From: Acidimicrobiia bacterium
GTDB taxonomy: Bacteria > Actinomycetota > Acidimicrobiia > Spongiisociales > UBA5794
Direction: 5' to 3'
DNA length: 64,000 bases
NCBI GenBank assembly: GCA_036985855.1
Contig: BTQL01000001.1
Location: 10,920 to 74,919 of the forward strand
In this document: positions 26,936 to 46,689 of the stretch, piece by piece
Numbering within the stretch: position 1 is the first letter of the stretch
Layout of the letters: every line of letters begins with the position of its first letter
Translations under genes and position numbers: made by a program
Notes under the pieces: model-generated
The model's database searches: none
Told to the model about the DNA's origin: nothing
The model's input: only the letters and a program-made list of their open reading frames with translations

Positions 26936-29497
26936 TCAGCTGGCGATCACTGACTCCTCAGAACCGCTCTCACCGTTGATGTCGCGTTCCTCGATGAGGC
27001 CACGAAGCGTCTGCACCAACGCCCCTCTTGCGAAGTCCGACTTGTCGAAGAACGCGTCAACTCCGGCGCGTTCGGCCCGTGAGCGGTCTTCTTCTGACGC
27101 AACGCCAGAAAGCATCACGATCGGGATCGCTCCATATCGTTGACGAACCATGTGAGCCAGAGCGACACCGTCTGCCCTCGGCATCGAGAAGTCGACGACC
27201 AATGCGTCCACCGCGTTCCTAGCGAGTGCAGCCAACGCGTCTGACACGCTTCCAGCGGCAAGCGTGGAGAAGCCGTGGGACGCAAGGACACCGGACACGA
27301 CCTGCCGGACACCCTGGCTGTCGTCGACGACGAGAACCCGATGGACCGGACCCTCCGACAGGGCTTCGGCTGAACGCATGCGGTCTGCGAGCCTGCCTGC
27401 ATCCACAAGCATCACGGATTCGTCACCACCCAACAACGCAACACCGCTGACGACCGAGGCTCCGCTGAGCAGCGGTCCAAGATCCTTCGTAGCAACTTCA
27501 TGCATCTCGAGCACCTCGTCGACGGCAAGTGCGATCAGCCCGGTCGGGCTCTGAATCACCATGACCTGGGACGGCAGTCCCTCAACTTCGAGACCGGCGA
27601 CCGAAGCAAAGGACGCGTATGGGACACTTTCGTTCTCGAACCCGATCGAGCTGCCCTTCTCCGTCACAGAAATCGAGACGTCTGGGATCGGAACGATATC
27701 GACAACAACCGAACCTGGGACACCCCACACACGATTTCCTGCGAGGAACATCTGGGCTCGTTGCAGAGCGCGGTGGGCCGGCATGGTGATTACGAAGCTC
27801 GTGCCGCGACCCTCGGCTGTGTCGAGTGACATCGATCCGAAAACCTCTTCTACGATCTCGGTGACGCGTCCGAGACCCGAACCGGTTCCGGTGAATTCGG
27901 AAGAGTCCGGATTCGTGGAAAAGCCATCGGCATACAGGACGGAGTGCAATTCGTCGGCGCTCGGATCGGCTCCGACAAGTTCATGTTGCACTGCTCTTTC
28001 GCGAACTGCTACCCAGTCGATGCCGGAACCATCGTCGGTAATAGCGAGCTGCAAGTGCTGGTCATCTCTGCTCGCCGACACTCTGACCATGCCAGCCGAG
28101 GACTTGCCCGATGCGATACGGACATCGCGAGGTTCAAGACCGTGAGTGACGGCATTCACCACGAGTTGCCGTACCACCTCGCCGATACGGTCGAGGAGTT
28201 GGCGATCTATCAGTGTCTCATCGCCCTCGATAATGAGCTCGACATCCCGATCGAGCTTTTTCGACAGATACTTGACCAGCTGAGGAAGAGTCGACGTGAT
28301 ATTGGAGATGGGCACCACGGTGAGGCCAAGCGCCGCGGACTCGAGCTGGACGGATGCGCGTCTCACGGATTCAAGCGATTCGAGAACACCTTCAGCAGCA
28401 GCCTTCGACGCACCCTTCGGAGCGCTCGAGAGCACCCGGGTCGCCTGCTCGACCGCGGAGTCCATATCGATCCTCACGGTCGCGACATCATTGATCATTC
28501 GGAACAGACGCCCAGCGTTCACGGGGACCGACTCCTCGGTCGCCCACGTCTCAACCGCACCAACAAGGCCCCCGAGATCGTATGTCTGATTCGTCTCTGG
28601 GTCGAGCACAGAGCGCGATCCCTCAACGACGGTGAGGCTCGGCGGCTCGTCCAACGGGCTGACATCGACCGAGTCGGGTGCCGTTGCAGATTGGGGCACC
28701 TCAAGGTGAGCATCAGCCTCGGGTGTCGATTCAGTTGCAACGACCTCATAGGTGATCGTAGGTGTTGCAAGTTTGCCGTCCGGACCCGGCTCGAACACCA
28801 GTGGATCATCTTCGGACTGTTCATCAGGGGTTGTGCTGCTCTCCTGGGCAGTCTCAGAATCGTCTTCGTCCGATCGTTCGAATGTGATCGCAGCTACATC
28901 TGCCGATCGCTCGACGACCTCGGAGGTCTCGGGCGTGTCAGCTTCAACTACCGACTCCACCACCGGATCGAGTGTTTCGACATCGTCTGGCTCAAGGGCG
29001 ACGGGCGGAGACGTCTCGTCTTCGACGACTGGCTCAGGGACCTCGACGATCGCTTCGGATTCGGATGGTCCGGCCTCGATCTGTTCTTCTTCCGTCAGAG
29101 GTTCGGGGAGCGATTTGCGTAGGACGGGATCATCGATGACTGTTCGGACGGTTTCGATCGACTCGGACACCGCCGTGGTGTCCCCCCCGAGTGCTCCAGG
29201 AATCGACTCCGCAAGCATCAGCAGTGTTCTACCGAGCATCGAGGACGGTTCAAGGTCACCCTGTTGGATGAACCGCCACACGAACTCGCAGGTCTCTCCC
29301 CCACGTGCGATCCCCTCATACCCCATAACACGGCCAGTCCCCTTGATGGTATGACCCTCGCGGAGCATCCGGCCTGCAAGCTCCGAGCTGATTTCACCGC
29401 TCACCATGGCCTGCGCACCTTCCGCAAGACTGAGCGACCGTTCATCAAGCTCGTCTTTGAAGAGCTGCTCGAGCTCAAGATCGTTTTGCCAGTCCAT
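26936..29497 (-). CDS. CheA-like hybrid histidine kinase (HPt - acidic linker - dimerisation/HATPase - CheW-like - receiver)
   Basis: HPt motif REGHTIKGTGRVMG; ATPase motifs NAVTHGLE, DDGSGID, GTGSGLG; CheW-like segment; C-terminal REC (VLVVDDS.., VVDFSMPRADG, IVMLSG, FFDKS). Confidence 0.85.
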   Translation of the reverse strand: MDWQNDLELEQLFKDELDERSLSLAEGAQAMVSGEISSELAGRMLREGHTIKGTGRVMGYEGIARGGETCEFVWRFIQQGDLEPSSMLGRTLLMLAESIPGALGGDTTAVSESIETVRTVIDDPVLRKSLPEPLTEEEQIEAGPSESEAIVEVPEPVVEDETSPPVALEPDDVETLDPVVESVVEADTPETSEVVERSADVAAITFERSDEDDSETAQESSTTPDEQSEDDPLVFEPGPDGKLATPTITYEVVATESTPEADAHLEVPQSATAPDSVDVSPLDEPPSLTVVEGSRSVLDPETNQTYDLGGLVGAVETWATEESVPVNAGRLFRMINDVATVRIDMDSAVEQATRVLSSAPKGASKAAAEGVLESLESVRRASVQLESAALGLTVVPISNITSTLPQLVKYLSKKLDRDVELIIEGDETLIDRQLLDRIGEVVRQLVVNAVTHGLEPRDVRIASGKSSAGMVRVSASRDDQHLQLAITDDGSGIDWVAVRERAVQHELVGADPSADELHSVLYADGFSTNPDSSEFTGTGSGLGRVTEIVEEVFGSMSLDTAEGRGTSFVITMPAHRALQRAQMFLAGNRVWGVPGSVVVDIVPIPDVSISVTEKGSSIGFENESVPYASFASVAGLEVEGLPSQVMVIQSPTGLIALAVDEVLEMHEVATKDLGPLLSGASVVSGVALLGGDESVMLVDAGRLADRMRSAEALSEGPVHRVLVVDDSQGVRQVVSGVLASHGFSTLAAGSVSDALAALARNAVDALVVDFSMPRADGVALAHMVRQRYGAIPIVMLSGVASEEDRSRAERAGVDAFFDKSDFARGALVQTLRGLIEERDINGESGSEESVIAS

Positions 29498-37416: not shown

Positions 37417-37459
37417 CTGCCAGTTGGTACAGCCTCGCCGATGGTGCGAAGCTCCATGT

Positions 37460-38797
37460 ATGGAGCCAACGCCCAAGAGGGAACCGACACAACGAGCTCC
37501 CCTCGATGTCGGGAAACGAGGACGGTTCGATCTGGGACCGGTTGGCGCCACAGCCGCGGTAGCGGGCGTAGTCGCCATCGCCATGACAATCGCCCTCGGA
37601 TTGATCATTCCCAACATCGTCGAAGAGCGCGTCCTCGAAGCGGGAGCGACATCGATCCACGAAGCGGTGGACGAGATAGGGAGTGCACTCTATTCCGGCG
37701 AGATGCTCACCGAGGATGACATCGCTCTTCTGCACGAGCAGGTCGAGCTGTCCCTGCTCGGACGGGAGATCGTCCGCGTGAAGATCTGGGACAACATGGG
37801 CACGATCGTGTACTCGGACGAGGAACGACTCATCGGCAGAAGCTACGAGATGTCCGATGATCTGCTCGCAGCCTTCAGCGGAGAGCTCATCTGGGAGGCG
37901 CCAGATCTCACCCTGCCCGAGAACGAGTACGAACGGGGACTCGGCGAACTTCGCGAATACTACGTGCCTGTGGACAGCGGCGGACAGGGTATCGAGATCG
38001 TGTTCGAGGTGTATGAACTCGCCGACACACTCGTCGCAACCGTGGCCAGCATACGCGCTGGCGTGTGGATCGCTCTCGGGATCGGATCCGCCGTACTCCT
38101 CGTGGCACTCGCGACAGCTGCCATTACGAATGCACGCGCCGAGCGGAACCGGATAGCGCGCTCCGAACGACTGATCGGCCAGCTCCTCGAGATACAAGAA
38201 GACGAGCGGACCAGGATCATAGGAGCACTTCATGATGACATCGGTCAGCCGCTGTACCGGATCATGTTCGGGCTCCAGGCAGGTCGGAGGATGGTCGAGC
38301 GGGGGTCCGAAGTCGACGAGGAGCTCACAAAGCTGGACCTGCTCGTCAGAGACGTCGACGCCACGTTGCGATCCGAGCTCACGAGCTTGCGAGATGAACC
38401 CGGCGTCGAGATCGATCTGGAATCTGCTCTCGCGGAGTTGGTCGAGGTCGCGGAAGACGAGACGAACCTGGACATCGAATTCATATCGGATGTGGAGACG
38501 GAACTTCCGCTCGCTCATCGTGCAACGCTGTACCGTGCCGCCAAGGAGGCACTGGCCAACGTCGACAAACATGCGTACGCCGACCATGTCACAGTACGGT
38601 TGCTGGAAGGAAGAGACTCGACGATGATCGAGGTGACGGACGACGGAGCCGGCTCCACGGGAGAGCCAGGACTCGGACTCACGACTACAAGGGACCGACT
38701 CGAAGCGATCGGTGGCGGCATCGTAGTGTCCGACGCCAAAGGTGGCGGCACACGTCTCGTTGCCTGGGTACCCATTGAACGCTCGGAGGGGCAATGA
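37460..38797 (+). CDS. sensor histidine kinase, HisKA_3 (NarX/DesK) type, with a ~150-aa extracytoplasmic domain
   Basis: Two TM segments flank a periplasmic-type domain. H-box EDERTRIIGALHDDIGQPL; HATPase (DDGAGS, GLGLTTTRDRLEAIGG). The start is ATG at 37460 or TTG at 37424. Confidence 0.8.
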   Translation: MEPTPKREPTQRAPLDVGKRGRFDLGPVGATAAVAGVVAIAMTIALGLIIPNIVEERVLEAGATSIHEAVDEIGSALYSGEMLTEDDIALLHEQVELSLLGREIVRVKIWDNMGTIVYSDEERLIGRSYEMSDDLLAAFSGELIWEAPDLTLPENEYERGLGELREYYVPVDSGGQGIEIVFEVYELADTLVATVASIRAGVWIALGIGSAVLLVALATAAITNARAERNRIARSERLIGQLLEIQEDERTRIIGALHDDIGQPLYRIMFGLQAGRRMVERGSEVDEELTKLDLLVRDVDATLRSELTSLRDEPGVEIDLESALAELVEVAEDETNLDIEFISDVETELPLAHRATLYRAAKEALANVDKHAYADHVTVRLLEGRDSTMIEVTDDGAGSTGEPGLGLTTTRDRLEAIGGGIVVSDAKGGGTRLVAWVPIERSEGQ

Positions 38798-39426
38798 TCC
38801 GGCTTGCGATCGCCGATGACCATCGGATCATTCGCGAGGGGCTCGATCTCCTCCTCGCGGAAGCGGATGACATTGAGATCGTTGCCCACGCATCTGACGG
38901 TCATGAGCTGATCGATATCCTCGAGACGACCGATATCGACGTGGTTCTCCTGGACGTGCGCATGCCGAACATGACAGGCCTCGACGTTCTCGGCACCATC
39001 GGGGAGCTAGGGATAGAGGTCGCCGTCGTGATGTTGAGCATGTACGGGGACCCGGTATACGTGAGCAGAGCTATCGAGCTCGGTGCATCCGGGTATCTGC
39101 TCAAGAGCGTCGGACAGGATGAACTCGTCCGTGCAATAGAGACGGTCGCTGGAGGGAAGCCCTACTTCCACGCAGAGGTGACCGGTCCTCTTGTCGCCCG
39201 ATTGGTCAACGGTGATGCACCCGGTCCGGTCGGAGAGATGTCCGTCGAGCAACTTCAGATTCTCCAGCTGCTCGCAGACGGTGCGGACAACACATCGATC
39301 GCAAACTCCCTGTCGGTGAGTGAAGCCACGGCGAAAGCGAAGCTGAGGGCAATCTACGGTTCTCTCGGCGTACAGCGGCGCTCGGAGGCGGTCGCCGTGG
39401 CAATGCGTCTCGGACTCATCACCTAG
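38794..39426 (+). CDS. NarL/FixJ-family response regulator (REC + LuxR HTH)
   Basis: IRLAIADDH.., LLDVRMPNMTG, LLKS; C-terminal HTH (NTSIANSLSVSEATAKAKLRAIY). ATGA overlap with the kinase. Confidence 0.9.
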   Translation: MIRLAIADDHRIIREGLDLLLAEADDIEIVAHASDGHELIDILETTDIDVVLLDVRMPNMTGLDVLGTIGELGIEVAVVMLSMYGDPVYVSRAIELGASGYLLKSVGQDELVRAIETVAGGKPYFHAEVTGPLVARLVNGDAPGPVGEMSVEQLQILQLLADGADNTSIANSLSVSEATAKAKLRAIYGSLGVQRRSEAVAVAMRLGLIT

Positions 39427-39631: not shown

Positions 39632-41320
39632 ATGCGGACCAAGAGCAGATGGCTCGTGGTCGTGTTCGTGCTCGCCCTTGTCGCTGCTGCGTGTACCGGT
39701 TCCGAAGCCGAGGACGCCACAACGACGCAGGCACCAACAACGACAACAACGCTCGGATCGACTACAACCGAAGCACCACCGGCAACCGAGCCACCAACTA
39801 CAACTGAAGCACCTGCGCCCCCCGAAGAAGCGGCCATGGGACGTTCGTTGGTTGCTCCAGAGGCCGCGATCACGGTCGATGGTGACCCTTCGGACTGGGC
39901 CCTGGTTCCGGGTCTCGCTACGACACTCGAACCGATCGTCGAGGAAATGGGCGACGGGCTCGAGAACAAGGACGTCACCATCAAGATGGCGTATGACGAT
40001 GTGAACATCTACGCGCTGTTCACCGTCGACGACGACTACAACTGGAACGCCGACGACGCCCATCTCTCGGGTGCAGCCGCACTGCTGTTCCCCATCGACA
40101 CGGGTGGCCCACACATGGGCGCCGACGACGAGCTGGGCGAGGACTCAACCGGTTTGGTCGACATCTGGCACTGGGAACTCGAGTGTGCATCCGGCGTTGA
40201 CTCCGGTGGCGCTGTGAACCCTGCTGGTGACGGCAAGGACCCAGGCAACGACGCGACATGCAACTTCGACGACGAATGGGCATCGGACGCCGAAACCCGT
40301 GAAGACGACAACGGTGCAGGGGCAGAGAACAGCCTGCTCGGTGTATGGACACACTCCAACCCGACCGACGACGGGCCCGGTGTCTGGTACTTCGAGATGT
40401 CTCGCCCACTGCAAACCGGAGACGAAGGCGACGCACAGTTCACGGTAGGTGAAACGACACTGCTCGCCCTCGCCTACTGGGACGTCGACCTCGGACCCGA
40501 CGGTTGGCATGACGACTCCCACGTCCAGTCAGCCAACCAAGAATGGATCGAAGTCGACCTCGTGGCGACCACCGCCGAAGAAGCGGCCATGGGACGTTCG
40601 TTGGTTGCTCCAGAGGCCGCGATCACGGTCGATGGTGACCCTTCGGACTGGGCCCTGGTTCCGGGTCTCGCTACGACACTCGAACCGATCGTCGAGGAAA
40701 TGGGCGACGGGCTCGAGAACAAGGACGTCACCATCAAGATGGCGTATGACGATGTGAACATCTACGCGCTGTTCACCGTCGACGACGACTACAACTGGAA
40801 CGCCGACGACGCCCATCTCTCGGGTGCAGCCGCACTGCTGTTCCCCATCGACACGGGTGGCCCACACATGGGCGCCGACGACGAGCTGGGCGAGGACTCA
40901 ACCGGTTTGGTCGACATCTGGCACTGGGAACTCGAGTGTGCATCCGGCGTTGACTCCGGTGGCGCTGTGAACCCTGCTGGTGACGGCAAGGACCCAGGCA
41001 ACGACGCGACATGCAACTTCGACGACGAATGGGCATCGGACGCCGAAACCCGTGAAGACGACAACGGTGCAGGGGCAGAGAACAGCCTGCTCGGTGTATG
41101 GACACACTCCAACCCGACCGACGACGGGCCCGGTGTCTGGTACTTCGAGATGTCTCGCCCACTGCAAACCGGAGACGAAGGCGACGCACAGTTCACGGTA
41201 GGTGAAACGACACTGCTCGCCCTCGCCTACTGGGACGTCGACCTCGGACCCGACGGTTGGCATGACGACTCCCACGTCCAGTCAGCCAACCAAGAATGGA
41301 TCGAAGTCAAGGTCGGCTAG
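39632..41320 (+). CDS. lipoprotein with a Thr/Pro-rich linker and two identical EB_dh/DOMON-like (putative haem b-binding) domains
   Basis: ATG at 39632 after a gaggagg RBS. Lipobox LVAAAC, then a TTTQAPTTTTT..PPTTTEAP linker. Each ~245-aa repeat has ITVDGDPSDW, VTIKMAYDDVNIYALF, LLFPIDTGGPHMG, VDIWHWE, WYFEMSRPLQTGD and LALAYWD. The domain family was assigned from memory of Pfam EB_dh and not verified. Confidence 0.6.
   Translation: MRTKSRWLVVVFVLALVAAACTGSEAEDATTTQAPTTTTTLGSTTTEAPPATEPPTTTEAPAPPEEAAMGRSLVAPEAAITVDGDPSDWALVPGLATTLEPIVEEMGDGLENKDVTIKMAYDDVNIYALFTVDDDYNWNADDAHLSGAAALLFPIDTGGPHMGADDELGEDSTGLVDIWHWELECASGVDSGGAVNPAGDGKDPGNDATCNFDDEWASDAETREDDNGAGAENSLLGVWTHSNPTDDGPGVWYFEMSRPLQTGDEGDAQFTVGETTLLALAYWDVDLGPDGWHDDSHVQSANQEWIEVDLVATTAEEAAMGRSLVAPEAAITVDGDPSDWALVPGLATTLEPIVEEMGDGLENKDVTIKMAYDDVNIYALFTVDDDYNWNADDAHLSGAAALLFPIDTGGPHMGADDELGEDSTGLVDIWHWELECASGVDSGGAVNPAGDGKDPGNDATCNFDDEWASDAETREDDNGAGAENSLLGVWTHSNPTDDGPGVWYFEMSRPLQTGDEGDAQFTVGETTLLALAYWDVDLGPDGWHDDSHVQSANQEWIEVKVG
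39822..41308 (+). repeat. perfect tandem duplication: 734 bp (39822-40555) and 734 bp (40575-41308), joined by a 19-bp junction; period 753 bp
   Basis: The two blocks are identical on direct comparison. All shadow ORFs recur with identical sequence at +753 (e.g. 40020-40436 vs 40773-41189). Confidence 0.95.
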
Positions 41321-41423
41321 CGATAGTGCCACAACCCTCTCCTATCCGTGGAGACGCAGCGTTCATCTTCACGGATAGGAATGGGCTAGTGAACGGCCGG
41401 CCGCCGATGTACAGGAGTACCGA

Positions 41424-42401
41424 GTGAGTAAGAGACCCGAGAAAGTCAGGGGCAAAACAACGCCTCGAGATGAAGAGCCGATCCCTGTCGAGATCGTCGA
41501 CCGTAGGAGTGCAATCAAGTATCTCGGTATGGGCGCCCTCGGTGCGGTTCCATTGATGGCATCTCCTCGGGTCATGGACGGACTCGTCCGCGACGTCGTC
41601 GCAGGAACGGCCACGGAAGACCAGGCTGGAGATGCCGGTCCTGCAAGGACCAAGTCCGGCCGGATTCGTCAGTGGACGATGATCATCGACCTGGCGAAGT
41701 GTGACGGATGCCAGAGCCAGGGAACCCCACCTTTGTGCACCTCAGCCTGCATCGAAGGACATCTCGCTCCCCAGCCGATGCAATGGATCGAGATCTACGA
41801 AGCTGAACTGGGCGGTGGCGGCACACAGTTCATCCCGACGCCCTGCATGCAGTGCGAGAACCCACCGTGCGTAAAGGTATGCCCGGTTGGGGCGACCTTC
41901 TCCACCCCGGAGGGAACAGTTCTCATAGACCAGGAACGGTGCATCGGCTGCCGCATCTGTATGCCAGCCTGCCCGTACGACCGACGGTTCTTCAACTGGG
42001 GTAACCCGCCAGTCCCCCCCGAGGCTGCCCTCGCCGACTACCAGCCAGAGCATCAGGTCGCCTCGATCCGAGGGACGGTATACAAGTGCGACTTCTGCAC
42101 GGAGACGGTCAGAGACGGAACGCTCCCTTTCTGCGTCCAGGCATGCCCGAACGATGCCATCTGGTACGGAGATCTCGAAGAGGACATCGCAACGAACGGC
42201 CGCACGATCGTCAAGGCATCTCGCATGCTCTCCGACAACAATGCCTATCGGCTCAAGGAAGACCTCGGTACCCAGCCAAGGGTCCACTACCTGCCGGGTC
42301 ATGGAGAAGACGTTGGCCGGCATCCTGAGGATGAGGGTCGAATGCCAACGGAGTGGCCATGGATCGAACGAGCCGAGGGATCAGTCACATGGACTCGATG
42401 A
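41424..42401 (+). CDS. Tat-exported 4x[4Fe-4S] ferredoxin subunit (NrfC/PsrB/DmsB-like)
   Basis: Twin-arginine motif DRRSAIKYLG. Cys groups CDGCQ..C..C, CMQCENPPCVKVCP, CIGCRICMPACP and CDFC..CVQACP. Confidence 0.85.
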   Translation: MSKRPEKVRGKTTPRDEEPIPVEIVDRRSAIKYLGMGALGAVPLMASPRVMDGLVRDVVAGTATEDQAGDAGPARTKSGRIRQWTMIIDLAKCDGCQSQGTPPLCTSACIEGHLAPQPMQWIEIYEAELGGGGTQFIPTPCMQCENPPCVKVCPVGATFSTPEGTVLIDQERCIGCRICMPACPYDRRFFNWGNPPVPPEAALADYQPEHQVASIRGTVYKCDFCTETVRDGTLPFCVQACPNDAIWYGDLEEDIATNGRTIVKASRMLSDNNAYRLKEDLGTQPRVHYLPGHGEDVGRHPEDEGRMPTEWPWIERAEGSVTWTR

Positions 42402-43801
42402 CGAACTGGCGCGAACGACTCATCGGTAAGACGACGAGACCAACCCTCGTCACCACGTATCGGTACTGGCTGTGGTTGGGATTCCTCATCGTGATCGTGG
42501 TCAACAGCGGCTACCAGTATTCGAGACAGTGGCAGAACGGTCTGTACGTCACCGACATGCGGGACCGGATCTCGTGGGGTCTCTACATCTCGGCGTTTGT
42601 GTTCTTCATCGGCATCAGCCATGCAGGAACACTGATCTCAGCGATCCTTCGGGTATCGAAGGCCACGTGGAGGGCGCCGATCACGAGGATCGCAGAGTTC
42701 ATCACGGCCGTTTCGTTGTTGGTAGGTGCCTCGTTCGTACTCATCGACATGGGTCGCCCAGACAGGATCTTCAACGTCTTCCGATACGGCCGATGGCAAT
42801 CCCCGATCATGTGGGACGTCATGGCGATCACGACCTACCTGACGGCAAGTGTCATTTATCTGTACGCACCGATGATCCCGGACCTCGGCCTGTACAGAGA
42901 CCGGCTCGCGAACAAGGTCGGTGTCGTACGTAACTTCCTGTACCGAACACTCGCACTGAACTGGAACGCACTGCCGCAACAGGTCAAGTTCCTTGGCAAG
43001 GCCATCACGATCATGATGCTGATCATCATGCCCATTGCGGTGTCTGTGCACACAGTCGTATCGTGGATCTTCTCGATGACCCTGCGCGCTGGATGGAACA
43101 CCAGCATCTTCGGCGTGCTGTTCGTTGCCGGGGCGATCTTCAGCGGCGTCGCAACGCTCATCCTCGTCATGGCCGTACTGAGACGGATCTACCACTGGGA
43201 GGAGTACCTCACTGAGCAACACTTCCTGTACCTGGGGTATCTGCTCGCAGCGTTCGGTGCGTTCATGATCTACGTGAACATCAACGAGTACCTGACCGAA
43301 GGATTCAAGCTCGAAGAAGCCGGAGAGTTCGCCTTCCGTCAACTGTTCGTCGAGGACTTCGCCGTCATGTTCTGGTTCTACATCATCGGGGGCCTCATCG
43401 GGCCCATCGTCTTGATGTTGATCCCGAAAACCCGCACAATCGCAGGCGTGATCGTGGCTGCGATCCTTGTCGACATAGCGATGTTCCTCGAGCGGTACTT
43501 CATCGTGGTGACGGGTCTCCGCGTTCCCCTCATGCCGTATGAGCCTGCGAGCTACTCGCCTACGTTCGTGGAGTGGTCGATCTTCGCAGGAGGTTTGGCG
43601 TTCTTCGCGTTGCTGCTCACCGTTGCGGTCAAGATCTTCCCCATGCTCGCGGTGTGGGAAATGACCGAGGAACACGAGAAGATGCTTGCCCGCGACCATA
43701 CCGGGCAGCCACTGAAACACGAGGCGGACGTCGCTCTGTCCGGCGGACCGGCAGAGAGGTCGCCGGACCAGGGAGATCTCCACCGGGGAGGTGCATCGTG
43801 A
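42398..43801 (+). CDS. NrfD/PsrC-family polytopic quinone-interacting membrane subunit
   Basis: About 10 hydrophobic helices over 467 aa. ATG at 42398 forms an ATGA overlap with the ferredoxin stop. The position after an NrfC-like gene is typical. Confidence 0.75.
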   Translation: MTNWRERLIGKTTRPTLVTTYRYWLWLGFLIVIVVNSGYQYSRQWQNGLYVTDMRDRISWGLYISAFVFFIGISHAGTLISAILRVSKATWRAPITRIAEFITAVSLLVGASFVLIDMGRPDRIFNVFRYGRWQSPIMWDVMAITTYLTASVIYLYAPMIPDLGLYRDRLANKVGVVRNFLYRTLALNWNALPQQVKFLGKAITIMMLIIMPIAVSVHTVVSWIFSMTLRAGWNTSIFGVLFVAGAIFSGVATLILVMAVLRRIYHWEEYLTEQHFLYLGYLLAAFGAFMIYVNINEYLTEGFKLEEAGEFAFRQLFVEDFAVMFWFYIIGGLIGPIVLMLIPKTRTIAGVIVAAILVDIAMFLERYFIVVTGLRVPLMPYEPASYSPTFVEWSIFAGGLAFFALLLTVAVKIFPMLAVWEMTEEHEKMLARDHTGQPLKHEADVALSGGPAERSPDQGDLHRGGAS

Positions 43802-44805
43802 TTTGCCGTCACATCCAGTTCATCGTGCGTGTTTCAGTCTCGGTCTTCGCTGTTTTGGCGATACTGACCATGGCTACGTCCGCCTACGCAGCTGAGATCG
43901 GGATCAGCGTCGGTGCCCCTGAACGGGCCTCTGTCGGGCAAAACGTCGAGGTCAAAGCTGTGTTGTCTGAGAACGGAGTCCCCTTGGAAGGCGCTGAGGT
44001 CGCCTTGACGTACCAAGCATCGATGGCCGGAGAATCGGCCAGAGTCGAACTCGCGACGGCAATCACCGACGAAACAGGAACCGCGGTGATGATCTACCAG
44101 CAGCGGGCGGACGACAACCGCGAGATGCGCGTTGTCTATCTTGGGCCCGGAACCGATCCGGTAGAGCCATACGTCTTCACGATCGCCGTCGAACCGGGCG
44201 GCGAGCAACTGTATCGGTCGGAATCCGGAGTCGAGATCCCGTTCGTGAATGGCACGTTGGTGATTCTCGTTATCGCCACTGTGTGGTTTCTGATCGCCCT
44301 TGCAGGCGTCTACCTCGTCCGTGTAGGAAAAGCGGGACAACTGGTAGAGACACCGACCGGCGAGGACGGCTCGATGTGGATCAGCGTGCTGCTCGCATCC
44401 GCGGCAGTGTTCACCGCCATCGGCATGGTGATCGTGTTCGTCAGGGCTCCGGTGTCGAACGCGGACGTCACGGACCCGGAACGGTATGACCGTACGCCAA
44501 TCGTGTACATCGACAGCACGTATCCCTACGAAGGGTTCGGTCTCAACGATGAGTCGGTCGCGCAGACCGGCGACCCGATCAAGGACGGAGGCGCGCTCTA
44601 CTTCAAGTATGGGTGTGCCGCGTGTCACGGTCTCAACGGACAGGGCGCAGTGGTGGGCCCGACGCTCGTGGACGAGATCGGATCCTTCGGGAGCTTCAGC
44701 GAGGATGTGAGAGAAGGCACCAGGGGGATGCCCGAATACCACGACGTCACGATCTCAGACGAGAACCTCCAGAAGATCTACGCCTATCTCAAAGAGGGAC
44801 GCTAA
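43798..44805 (+). CDS. membrane-anchored monohaem c-type cytochrome with an N-terminal extracytoplasmic domain
   Basis: GTG at 43798 (GTGA overlap, ggggagg RBS). Signal/anchor VFAVLAILTMATSAYA, two internal TMs, then C-terminal YFKYGCAACHGLNGQG with a downstream Met (RGMPEY). Confidence 0.7.
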   Translation: MICRHIQFIVRVSVSVFAVLAILTMATSAYAAEIGISVGAPERASVGQNVEVKAVLSENGVPLEGAEVALTYQASMAGESARVELATAITDETGTAVMIYQQRADDNREMRVVYLGPGTDPVEPYVFTIAVEPGGEQLYRSESGVEIPFVNGTLVILVIATVWFLIALAGVYLVRVGKAGQLVETPTGEDGSMWISVLLASAAVFTAIGMVIVFVRAPVSNADVTDPERYDRTPIVYIDSTYPYEGFGLNDESVAQTGDPIKDGGALYFKYGCAACHGLNGQGAVVGPTLVDEIGSFGSFSEDVREGTRGMPEYHDVTISDENLQKIYAYLKEGR

Positions 44806-45947
44806 GGAGCCGGATCGGAAGCTCCCAGTACAGGGATTCGAGCCTCGACGATTGTTCCGCGCCCGTGATCGGAGTCGATGTTGAGGTCACCCCCGGCACG
44901 CTTGACCCTCGTACGCATGTTCGCAAGGCCGAGCCCCCACGGTGCGCTGGCGACGTCGAAGCCGTGACCGTTGTCCGTGACCCCCAGGAAGAGTGAACGC
45001 TCATCCGCAGAGAGAGCGACCTCGATCGCCGTTGCACCTGAGTGACGAATCGCATTCGAAACGCTCTCCCTCACGATCTGGAGCACGTCGTCGATCAAGG
45101 AGAGATCGAGCTCGGGAACACTCCCCTGAACGGACACGGTAGTAGGGACATCGTATGGCCCTCCGAGTCTGTCGACCAATTCTTCGATCTCCACGGCGAG
45201 GGAACCTCTTCTGGGGAGATCACCATGAAGGTCGTAGATCAATCTGCGGAGTTCGGCAATCGATGCGTCGATGGCGACCGCAGCGTCATCCATCGCAGCA
45301 CGCATGCCTGCGTCATCAGCAGCAGCTACCGACCGTGCCTGAAGATCGAGGCCGACAGCGAACAGGTTCTGAATGATCGAATCATGGACATCGCGCGCGA
45401 TCCGGTCGCGGTCTTCCCTGACGGCGCTGTCACGTAACTCCTGCGCCATGCGAATGGAGTCGATTCCAGCTCCCGCGGCAACCGCGAGTGCCTTCATCGC
45501 AAGCTCATCTTGTTCATCGAAACCGCCGGGCTTCTCAGTGACGTACAGATTGCCGAAGATCCTGTCCCTCACCATGACAGGCACGCCGAGAAACGACGAC
45601 ATGTCCGGATGAGCCGAGGGAGTGCCGGTGTACGCGGAGTGTTGCGTTATATCATCCACACGCACTACCTCCCCATGGCGTGTTATGTCGCCGAGAAGCC
45701 CGCGTCCAACTGGTGGATCTCCGATACCGACCGCCACAGACGACGACACCCCCCTGTGGTGGAACTCTGAGATGGTACCGTGCCTATCAATCACACCAAG
45801 GGCGCCGTAGCGGGCGTTCGTCAGCTCGATGGCGGTATCGATGGTCGTCGTGAGAAGGGACTGCAGATCCACCTGCTCGACGATGGACGACGTACGCTCG
45901 ATCAGAAGTAGTAGGTCATCACGCCGACCATCGGGATCCTGCATCAT
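44802..45947 (-). CDS. cytoplasmic GAF-domain sensor histidine kinase (HisKA_3 type)
   Basis: GAF-like N-terminus (ELTNARYGALGVID..FLGVPV..FGNLYVTE), H-box DRDRIARDVHDSIIQNLF, HATPase (DNGHGF, GLGLANMRTRV). ATG at 45947 chosen because the longer ORF overlaps the divergent regulator gene. Confidence 0.8.
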   Translation of the reverse strand: MMQDPDGRRDDLLLLIERTSSIVEQVDLQSLLTTTIDTAIELTNARYGALGVIDRHGTISEFHHRGVSSSVAVGIGDPPVGRGLLGDITRHGEVVRVDDITQHSAYTGTPSAHPDMSSFLGVPVMVRDRIFGNLYVTEKPGGFDEQDELAMKALAVAAGAGIDSIRMAQELRDSAVREDRDRIARDVHDSIIQNLFAVGLDLQARSVAAADDAGMRAAMDDAAVAIDASIAELRRLIYDLHGDLPRRGSLAVEIEELVDRLGGPYDVPTTVSVQGSVPELDLSLIDDVLQIVRESVSNAIRHSGATAIEVALSADERSLFLGVTDNGHGFDVASAPWGLGLANMRTRVKRAGGDLNIDSDHGRGTIVEARIPVLGASDPAP

Positions 45948-46005
45948 CTCACGATAGGCACAGGTGGTGCCAGAGGCTCCGCAGGCTTCTCGATATGCTG
46001 GAGCC

Positions 46006-46689
46006 ATGGATAACAGAACATTCCGCATCGTGCTCGTTGATGACCATGATGTCGTTCGGGCTGGACTGAAATCCGTCTTCGACAATGCGAAAGACCTCGA
46101 AGTCGTGGGTGAAGCTGGTACCTCGAGCGAGGCGATACGCCGAGTGGGACTCGACCTGCCCGATATTGTGGTTCTGGACGTGCGCCTGCCAGATGGATCG
46201 GGGATCGACGTCTGTCGCGAGATCAAGAGACGATGGCCTGCAACAGGCGTACTCATCCTCACCTCATACGCCGACCAGGATGCTTTGATCGAAGCATTCG
46301 ACGCCGGAGCCTCCGGTTACATCCTCAAACGTGTCGATTCCGCCGGACTCGTTGAGACGGTGAGAAGGGTCGGGCAGGGTCAGAAGGAGTTCGGCGACGC
46401 GCTCGACGCCGCCCTCGCAAGCAGAATCCGATCGAGCGGACAGGCTCCAGGAAAGCTCGATCGGTTGAGTCTCCAGGAGAGGAAGGTCCTTGACCTTCTC
46501 GCACAGGGCAGGTCGAACAAGCAGATCGCCGAACAGATGTTTCTGTCGGACAAGACGATCAAGAACTACGTCTCGCACATCCTCTCGAAGCTCGAGATGA
46601 CTTCGCGCACCGAGGCAGCAACCTACGCGACGAATATCGAAGCCGAACGCAGGGCGAGATATGCCCCGGAGGACTGGGTCACCGACTGA
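46006..46689 (+). CDS. NarL/FixJ-family response regulator
   Basis: FRIVLVDDH.., VLDVRLPDGSG, ILKR; HTH NKQIAEQMFLSDKTIKNYVSHIL. Confidence 0.9.
   Translation: MDNRTFRIVLVDDHDVVRAGLKSVFDNAKDLEVVGEAGTSSEAIRRVGLDLPDIVVLDVRLPDGSGIDVCREIKRRWPATGVLILTSYADQDALIEAFDAGASGYILKRVDSAGLVETVRRVGQGQKEFGDALDAALASRIRSSGQAPGKLDRLSLQERKVLDLLAQGRSNKQIAEQMFLSDKTIKNYVSHILSKLEMTSRTEAATYATNIEAERRARYAPEDWVTD

Follow-up and report, generated by a model that had tools for sequence, protein, structure and literature searches.

Four co-directional genes on the + strand, here called G1 to G4, span positions 39632-44805 in the open reading frame (ORF) list of a 64-kb stretch of DNA from a marine, uncultured member of the Acidimicrobiia; this whole stretch is referred to below as the window. 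They encode a lipoprotein with EB_dh domains, an NrfC-type ferredoxin, an NrfD-type membrane subunit and a membrane-anchored cytochrome c. The gene calls are equal to deposited proteins (GMQ92570/71/73 plus one NrfD protein) of the metagenome-assembled genome (MAG) 'Acidimicrobiia bacterium BMS9Abin12', in which G1, G2 and G4 are labelled 'hypothetical protein' and G3 'polysulfide reductase NrfD'. A preliminary description of the locus had reported the four ORFs and the coupling of the last three, and both points were verified in the sequence: G2 and G3 are joined by an ATGA overlap, and G3 and G4 by a GTGA overlap in which the GTG start of G4 overlaps the stop of G3. It had further suggested a quinol-linked electron conduit to or from an extracytoplasmic haem b lipoprotein. 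Synteny, fold and motifs support this suggestion, haem binding being predicted from the sequence. On balance, we think it probable that the genes encode a self-contained menaquinol:haem-protein oxidoreductase of a single-membrane cell, a stripped-down complex resembling alternative complex III (ACIII) and placed under two-component control. The features of the operon are as follows.

39632-41320, + strand: G1, EB_dh lipoprotein of 562 amino acids (aa) (Pfam EB_dh, E 4.9e-27; AlphaFold2 (AF2) model and Foldseek)
39822-40555, + strand: EB_dh tandem copy 1, with zero mismatches against 40575-41308
40575-41308, + strand: EB_dh tandem copy 2, 734 nucleotides (nt), the second EB_dh domain
41340-41380, + strand: intercistronic hairpin between G1 and G2, with a 15-bp stem and an 11-nt loop and without a U-tract
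41424-42401, + strand: G2, ferredoxin of the NrfC/PsrB/ActB-C-terminal type, 325 aa (Pfam Fer4_11; twin-arginine translocation (Tat) motif; 16 Cys)
42398-43801, + strand: G3, NrfD subunit of the ActC/DsrP type with ten transmembrane (TM) helices (Pfam NrfD, 2e-38; deposited start ATG 42389)
43798-44805, + strand: G4, cytochrome c protein of 335 aa with two TM helices and an immunoglobulin (Ig)-like domain (Pfam Cytochrome_CBB3, E 7e-10; AF2 model)

G2 and G3 form the NrfCD core. G2 has the Tat motif DRRSAIKYL; its Cys residues number exactly 16 and form four 4-Cys motifs, for which four [4Fe-4S] clusters are predicted. It matches PsrB in the PDB at 1e-27 and residues 787-1022 of ActB at 9e-24, without the molybdopterin-like half of the latter. 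Its previous assignment as a Tat-signal ferredoxin of the NrfC/PsrB type with four Cys clusters is borne out by the motif, the Cys count and the PsrB match. The nearest NCBIfam families are DsrO for G2 (161.8 bits vs an equivalog cutoff of 200) and DsrP for G3 (129.9 bits vs 350). In the PDB G3 matches only ACIII chains, namely ActC at 1.7e-48 to 4e-43 and, weakly, ActF. The alignment with ActC covers residues 47-421 of G3 and 55-451 of ActC, which was taken as all ten helices; together with the Pfam NrfD match it agrees with the NrfD/PsrC-like subunit of about 10 TM helices proposed before. Judged by these matches, G3 is specifically ActC-like, a detail that the preliminary description did not contain, and ACIII is its nearest solved relative. 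When the quinol-site residues of Rhodothermus marinus ActC listed by Calisto and Pereira (PMC8076601) were mapped onto G3, Ser164 and Asp169 were kept as Ser135 and Asp140, and His139 was found replaced by Asp117. An Asp at the position of His139 is also present in DsrP, Psr and Qrc.

G1 starts with the lipobox LALVAAAC (Cys21), followed by a Thr/Pro-rich linker (aa 22-70). Pfam EB_dh (PF09459) matches the protein in two stretches with 95.9 bits, well over its cutoff of 33.3, whereas DOMON (PF03351, 19.9 vs 32.7 bits) and CBM9_1 (PF06452, 15.8 vs 23.4 bits) remain below their cutoffs. An AF2 model of a single G1 domain has a core predicted local distance difference test score (pLDDT) >90, and with this model Foldseek retrieved NxrC at E 9e-12 and EbdC at E 8e-9 (TM-score 0.77, root-mean-square deviation 3.7 Å), CBM9 modules ranking lower at 1e-5 to 1e-6. 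The repeated domain is thus EB_dh by family, as had been suggested, and nearest to NxrC and EbdC by its predicted fold, a beta-sandwich; the CBM9 alternative, checked by Pfam and by Foldseek, lost both comparisons to EB_dh and the haem-b subunits. The domain is strongly acidic, with 54 D/E vs 6 K/R in each copy.

Related loci (given below by L numbers) were collected by a family-profile scan of one genome per species, which recovered 77 loci, and all six-frame ORFs of the loci were searched with the window proteins. The presence of two EB_dh domains in G1 was already described and is correct; what had passed unremarked is that they are a perfect tandem duplicate and that the orthologues are mostly single-domain. 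The 734 nt of 39822-40555 and of 40575-41308 are 100% identical, with a period of 753 nt (251 codons) and a unique 19-nt junction, 40556-40574, between the copies. Most G1 orthologues have one EB_dh domain and about 310 aa. Two-domain genes of relatives show 70-99% identity between their domains (82% at the nt level in L005 and 78% in L006), near-homogenised pairs being found in L012 (99.4%) and L074 (95%), and one Chloroflexota gene (L079) contains four EB_dh domains. By these comparisons the two-domain form of G1 is a lineage-specific duplication, and the pattern of identities suggests gene conversion or several recent rounds of duplication. An assembly artefact was considered and ruled out in kind, because the unique junction joins the copies and the two-domain genes of relatives have diverged; the number of EB_dh copies in the genome could be greater than two.

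The haem b of NxrC is ligated by Met155 and Lys305 (PMC8387239), and that of EbdC likewise by a Met and a Lys (PMC8840923). In NxrC, Met155 lies in the sequence SPRMG, 12 residues before WHW; in G1 the sequence GPHMG precedes WHW by 19 residues. Met162 of this motif was invariant in 98 EB_dh domains from 81 loci, as were His241, His297, Cys185 and Cys210. The PHMG Met, which had been put forward as a possible axial ligand, is therefore conserved and sits in the same P-x-M-G motif as the NxrC ligand, and it is on this motif that the proposed equivalence of Met162 and Met155 is based. His297 falls three residues beyond the projected position of the Lys of NxrC and EbdC; the PDB sequence alignments end 5-7 residues before the register of NxrC Lys305, so that the position of this C-terminal His is a projected one. 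Ligation of haem by Met and His occurs in cytochrome b562 and in the cytochrome domain of cellobiose dehydrogenase. We propose that each G1 domain may hold one haem b by Met162 and either His297 or His241, because these three residues are invariant, Lys is not, and His297 is near the Lys position.

G4 consists of a probable signal peptide, an Ig-like beta-sandwich domain (aa ~34-130), two TM helices (152-179 and 193-216) and an external class I cytochrome c domain with a single CAACH at 273, for which the invariant Met311 is the probable sixth haem ligand. The extracytoplasmic domain, the two TM helices and the C-terminal CAACH cytochrome c of the preliminary description were all recovered by Pfam, alignments and the AF2 model. 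The N-terminal signal anchor was not, since a cleavable signal peptide, cut between AYA and AE, looks likelier. The closest PDB relatives of the cytochrome c domain are actinobacterial QcrC and CcoP (1e-5 to 1e-6), and the match to ActE (6lod_E) is weak, at E 0.2. Foldseek with the G4 model, which has a predicted TM-score (pTM) of 0.36 and a poorly modelled cytochrome c, returned nanobody and other Ig structures only and gave no connection with ActD or ActE. Within the family the cytochrome c domain changes place: it is on G4 in the clade of the window, is fused to EB_dh in L003, L040, L047, L054 and L060, and is absent in L002, L004 and L080. The Tat motif of G2, the lipobox of G1 and the signal peptide and out-in-out topology of G4 agree in placing all predicted cofactor domains on the outside, as had been stated.

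The lack of a molybdopterin or multihaem partner gene in the 64 kb, reported previously, was confirmed by a CXXCH count and a scan of large ORFs. There was no ORF with more than one CXXCH in the window, no molybdopterin protein among the ten largest window ORFs scanned and the cluster neighbours (the large ORFs encode SdhA, UvrD, a CheA-like protein, LeuA, an S9 peptidase and similar), and no DsrJKM-like ORF adjoining the cluster. In the related loci examined a molybdoenzyme gene was never found beside the EB_dh gene. The neighbours of the orthologous clusters in these loci include no molybdopterin subunit, but multihaem neighbours do occur in two loci, L026 and L028. Here large secreted proteins (L028 14303-16651; L026 6463-8577 and 8581-9882) adjoin the NrfCD-EB_dh cluster and have 2-4 class-I cytochrome c domains together with Big_9, cadherin-like or PKD domains. 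These multi-cytochrome proteins, from Acidimicrobiaceae/Actinomycetes MAGs, resemble cell-surface electron-transfer proteins.

The arrangement is conserved well outside the window. The survey of neighbourhoods showed that nrfC, nrfD, the N-terminal part of G4 and EB_dh stand together in about 38 of 81 loci, with no adjacent molybdoenzyme, in Acidimicrobiia, Limnocylindria and Dehalococcoidia. The genes follow one another as EB_dh-C-D-G4 or C-D-G4-EB_dh; the genes on either side differ from locus to locus and are unrelated. Since this synteny is conserved across phyla, the arrangement is not due to chance. The loci are nearly all from MAGs labelled Acidimicrobiia, Actinomycetota or Chloroflexota, with hydrothermal sulfide, sediment and groundwater as source habitats.

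A second context of the same lipoprotein family was found in about 21 other loci, in which an EB_dh lipoprotein heads a Rieske/cytochrome b cluster. The order there is EB_dh, a GltD-like NAD(P)-flavoprotein with Fer4 (iron-sulfur) domains, cytochrome b, Rieske protein and a dihaem cytochrome c (for example L048 9878-15298 and L017 8134-13680; also L015, L027, L031, L034, L038, L055, L057, L064 and L067). With its NAD(P) subunit, this Rieske/cytochrome b complex brings to mind the unusual bc complexes of anammox bacteria. No third conserved context was seen among the remaining EB_dh genes, which have unrelated housekeeping neighbours except for one HmuY gene, the HmuY-like gene directly upstream of EB_dh at L052 9049-9738. 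The domain matches only 154 clusters at E <=1e-3 among 1.84 billion representative proteins. Its fusions include cytochrome c plus EB_dh (P0347, P0343), Big_1 plus cytochrome c plus EB_dh (P0344, which unites the G4-type and G1-type domains in one chain), a weak cupredoxin match plus EB_dh (P0346), and two EB_dh domains plus HmuY (P0333). P0344, P0347 and other family members also match Pfam EB_dh.

Two NarL-family two-component systems bracket the operon, at 37424-39426 and 44802-46689.

37424-38797, + strand: HK1, sensor histidine kinase (Pfam HisKA_3 and HATPase_c) with two TM helices around an extracytoplasmic domain of ~170 aa
38794-39426, + strand: RR1, NarL/LuxR-type response regulator (Pfam Response_reg and GerE), with an ATGA overlap with HK1
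44802-46262, - strand: GAF-HisKA_3-HATPase histidine kinase (Pfam), convergent with G4
45964-46689, + strand: RR2, second NarL/LuxR-type response regulator (Pfam), divergent from the GAF kinase

In 24 of the 35 loci scored, the cluster adjoins genes for a HisKA_3 kinase and a NarL-type regulator. The EB_dh gene is directly preceded by an HK1 orthologue in L006-L008, L010, L016, L023, L043 and L067, and RR1 is conserved together with HK1. The two-component system is part of the unit, which is an addition to the preliminary description. The extracytoplasmic sensor domain of HK1 has no family match, the kinase as such has a merely generic one in NCBIfam, and none of the four structural proteins and four regulators reached an NCBIfam equivalog cutoff. 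A GAF kinase stands beside the cluster in L005, L006, L081 and L082, and more distant ones are present in several other cluster loci; RR2 is conserved with it, the pair being downstream of the cluster in several relatives. The GAF kinase ORF is probably shorter at its N-terminus, an orthologue having 390 aa. Its domain order is DosS/DevS-like with a single GAF domain detected, and its stop overlaps that of G4 by 4 nt, the two genes being convergent.

A consensus scan of the operon region gave neither a sigma-70 promoter nor a canonical terminator. The hairpin at 41340-41380 has an RNA folding energy of -44.1 kcal/mol (z -2.4), and perfect stems of 11-17 bp with different sequences occupy the same place in 11 orthologous loci (L001, L005, L007, L008, L010, L016, L020, L023, L042, L076 and L081), some of which share a GTCCGTGG/CCACGGAC core. 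The hairpin is possibly an attenuator or an mRNA stabiliser. With a conserved hairpin after G1, this protein could be made in excess of G2-G4, as expected of a carrier.

The operon was compared with known systems, including the ACIII (ActABCDEF) structures of Rhodothermus (6f0k), Flavobacterium (6btm), Roseiflexus (6lod) and Chloroflexus (8k9e). Like ACIII, it has an NrfD subunit most similar to ActC, a G2 similar to the iron-sulfur half of ActB and a membrane-anchored monohaem cytochrome c (G4, a possible counterpart of ActE), with all cofactors on the outer face and without a catalytic metal site. Unlike ACIII, G2 has only 325 aa and lacks the molybdopterin-like N-terminal domain of the ~1000-aa ActB; there is neither a pentahaem ActA nor a second NrfD-like ActF, a single NrfD ORF being present; an EB_dh lipoprotein and an Ig-like/2-TM subunit are found instead; and His139 and Asp253 of ActC are replaced by Asp117 and Ile224. 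A Tat-exported four-cluster protein with a cofactor-less, quinone-interacting NrfD is shared with DsrOP, QrcCD, NrfCD and PsrBC, but the window lacks the DsrJKM, QrcAB, NrfAB and PsrA of the respective complexes, and the DsrO and DsrP scores are below the equivalog cutoffs. Among the partners listed in a 2021 review of the NrfD family none is an EB_dh-type haem-b protein (PMC8076601). With EbdC (2ivf_C) and NxrC (7b04_C), G1 has in common the Pfam family, the fold, the WHW and P-x-M-G motifs and, to judge from its sequence, a predicted surface haem able to exchange electrons with cytochrome c. It differs from them as a stand-alone tethered lipoprotein, often multi-domain and without alpha/beta partners; it has no invariant Lys but an invariant His three residues from the Lys position, and its TIGR03477 score is far below the cutoff.

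Clusters of NrfD, 4Fe-4S and multihaem proteins have been predicted as 'menaquinone:cytochrome c oxidoreductase' in Methanoperedens and metal reducers (PMC7327174), and Borgs encode an extracellular EBDH-gamma-like protein that was proposed as an electron carrier (PMC9605863). The Methanoperedens clusters resemble the present one in having an NrfCD core without a catalytic subunit, proposed to send quinol electrons outward. In those cases, however, the partners are multihaem c proteins and the EB_dh-like protein is unlinked, whereas here EB_dh is the conserved partner of NrfCD. In the SoxLN-CbsAB system of Sulfolobus the place of cytochrome c1 is taken by CbsA, an extracellular glycoprotein with one haem b. 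This offers an analogy, in that a surface b-haem works with a quinol-oxidising complex where no periplasm exists, and the Rieske/cytochrome b context of the EB_dh paralogues is analogous; the organisms and the membrane modules are different, and no link between CbsA and EB_dh was found in the literature searched. Nor was a description of an NrfCD cluster with an EB_dh lipoprotein found there. All component families are known, and the combination with two-component control is unmatched among NCBIfam equivalogs, solved complexes and the literature searched, in agreement with the earlier view that the gene set fits no characterised complex.

Physical assembly, electron direction, proton coupling and the acceptor are points that we infer, and the oxidoreductase that we think probable would work as follows. 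G3 would bind quinol and oxidise it on the outer side of the membrane. Exported in folded form by Tat, G2 would sit on G3, its four clusters carrying the electrons off the quinol site, and these would then reach two haems outside the cytoplasm, haem c in G4 and haem b in the EB_dh domains that G1 provides. The cytochrome c of G4 would be held at the complex by the two TM helices and the Ig-like domain. G1, on its Thr/Pro tether of ~50 residues, would be the carrier or exit point and do what pentahaem ActA, triheme DsrJ or multihaem cytochromes do in related complexes. Besides the hairpin, three points favour a carrier role of G1. Lipoproteins of this family also serve another, unrelated type of quinol oxidase; these bacteria lack a periplasm that would retain soluble carriers; and the haem b of EbdC, at +256 mV, is exposed near the protein surface and thought to donate electrons to cytochrome c (PMC8840923). 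The final acceptor would lie outside the unit, with about equal odds for a terminal oxidase or reductase in the membrane and for an oxidant outside the cell. The resemblance of G4 to QcrC and CcoP and the analogy with ACIII point to a terminal oxidase as a possible acceptor. The tether, the multi-domain arrays, the acidity of G1, the cytochromes of L026 and L028, the extracytoplasmic sensor and the sediment and vent habitats point to an extracellular partner. The clusters of Methanoperedens and the EBDH-gamma-like protein of Borgs, both published but uncharacterised, each provide a precedent for one half of this idea.

Several findings weigh against this account. The Lys ligand of EbdC and NxrC is not conserved, no Lys being invariant in the 98 domains, and HMMER, because of a length difference of 7 residues, leaves Met162 out of register with NxrC Met155. 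For all members of this EB_dh subfamily haem is a prediction from sequence, the solved EB_dh proteins are weakly similar to G1 (NxrC at E 3.5e-7 and EbdC at E 0.72, by profile), and its N-terminal motif ITVDGDxSDW is common to sugar-binding CBM74/CBM9-like modules. G1 is Sec-exported, so that insertion of haem b would have to happen outside the cell; Escherichia coli cytochrome b562 provides a precedent for a Sec-exported haem b protein with external haem insertion. At the quinol site, Asp253 of ActC is not conserved and corresponds to Ile224 in G3. Finally, NrfCD modules also work as quinone reductases (Qrc, Hyb), and the direction could be either way. The NrfD-family complexes Qrc and Hyd-2 reduce quinone (PMC8076601), and in the same manner the module may run in reverse, the haem-b lipoprotein and cytochrome c oxidising Fe(II), reduced humics or a partner cytochrome and the electrons passing partly to an oxidase and partly via G2/G3 to menaquinone, as in QrcABCD. 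The acidic G1 domain, with many invariant Asp/Glu, could bind cations, the high potentials of canonical EB_dh haems would suit the oxidation of Fe(II), and the MAGs come from hydrothermal sulfide, sediment and groundwater. However, the potential of menaquinone is about -74 mV, and its reduction from a high-potential haem would be uphill and cost proton-motive force. Moreover, the Rieske/cytochrome b complexes of the sister context normally oxidise quinol, no Cyc2- or Fox-type iron oxidase is adjacent, and ACIII, the nearest solved relative, is a quinol oxidase. We therefore regard a reverse mode as unlikely.

In other settings EB_dh proteins are known to be gamma subunits of type II dimethyl sulphoxide (DMSO)-reductase-family enzymes, and G1-G4 might be the anchor or stalk of such an enzyme, with G1 as gamma and Nar-, Nxr-, Ser- or Ddh-like alpha/beta subunits encoded elsewhere. 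The inspected part of the genome is 64 kb, which leaves room for them. In archaeal pNar, the haem-b protein Orf7 links NarGH to a Rieske/cytochrome b module, and the EB_dh paralogue beside Rieske/cytochrome b mimics this NarBC-Orf7 arrangement. Yet no alpha/beta gene lies beside the EB_dh gene in the loci examined, among them loci with 10-kb flanks on both sides; the score of G1 against NCBIfam DMSO_red_II_gam is 29.3 bits vs a cutoff of 169.85; and there is no Lys ligand. G1 brings a lipid anchor and a tether of its own and forms arrays of 2-4 domains, the unit has its own regulators, and all four 4-Cys motifs are complete in G2, which is of NrfC type and unlike the NarH-type beta subunits with their 3Fe-4S cluster. 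It is hence quite improbable that G1 is such a gamma subunit. Still further from the evidence, the EB_dh-like domains would be non-redox modules of CBM9/DOMON type for sugar, cell wall or haem scavenging, with an incidental or regulatory nrfCD neighbourhood. This very improbable account draws on the fold superfamily, which includes sugar-binding CBM9 (Foldseek 1e-5 to 1e-6), on the N-terminal DGDxSDW motif, which matches CBM74/Sas6, and on the HmuY fusion and adjacency (P0333, L052), which could mean haem handling. It has to be set against an EB_dh score well above the Pfam cutoff with CBM9 and DOMON below theirs, haem-b subunits at the top of the fold ranking, invariant Met and His, the conserved linkage to two different quinol-oxidising complexes, the fusions to cytochrome c and cupredoxin-like domains, and the lack of any conserved glycoside hydrolase or transporter context. 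Taken together, synteny, fusions, family cutoffs and fold ranking weaken both the gamma-subunit and the non-redox explanations, which are disfavoured.

If a menaquinol:haem-protein oxidoreductase is indeed encoded here, a haem-b EB_dh lipoprotein and a monohaem cytochrome c as the sole partners at the outer face would be a new type of output for NrfD modules, widespread units of respiratory chains that have so far been described with molybdopterin or c-type multihaem partners, and the EB_dh fold would gain a role independent of molybdoenzymes. It would also suggest how the abundant, as yet uncultured Acidimicrobiia and Chloroflexota that live in sediments, vents, soils and groundwater bring electrons from quinol to their surface although they have no periplasm. 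With 'hypothetical protein' and 'polysulfide reductase NrfD' as their present database labels, these genes are missed or misnamed in metabolic reconstructions. More tentatively, and as a possibility that we hold with some doubt, the EB_dh lipoproteins may be an unrecognised class of tethered extracytoplasmic haem-b carriers in single-membrane Actinomycetota and Chloroflexota, a b-type counterpart of cytochrome c1/c that serves NrfCD-type as well as Rieske/cytochrome b-type quinol oxidases. The arrays of 2-4 domains on Thr/Pro tethers might then act as haem-b 'wires' that cross the cell wall and reach acceptors or donors outside the cell.

Contigs labelled Gemmatimonadales, Deferrimicrobiaceae, Gammaproteobacteria and Kiloniellaceae were also seen to carry EB_dh genes, with 52-75% identity to those of Acidimicrobiia. 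L010 and L044 carry the full cluster, and L052 and L057 are oddly labelled as well; these four are probably mis-binned contigs rather than cases of horizontal transfer. In the window itself, an 852-aa CheA-like protein (HATPase_c, CheW and receiver domains) is encoded on the - strand at 26936-29497, which indicates that chemotaxis signalling genes are present in the MAG.

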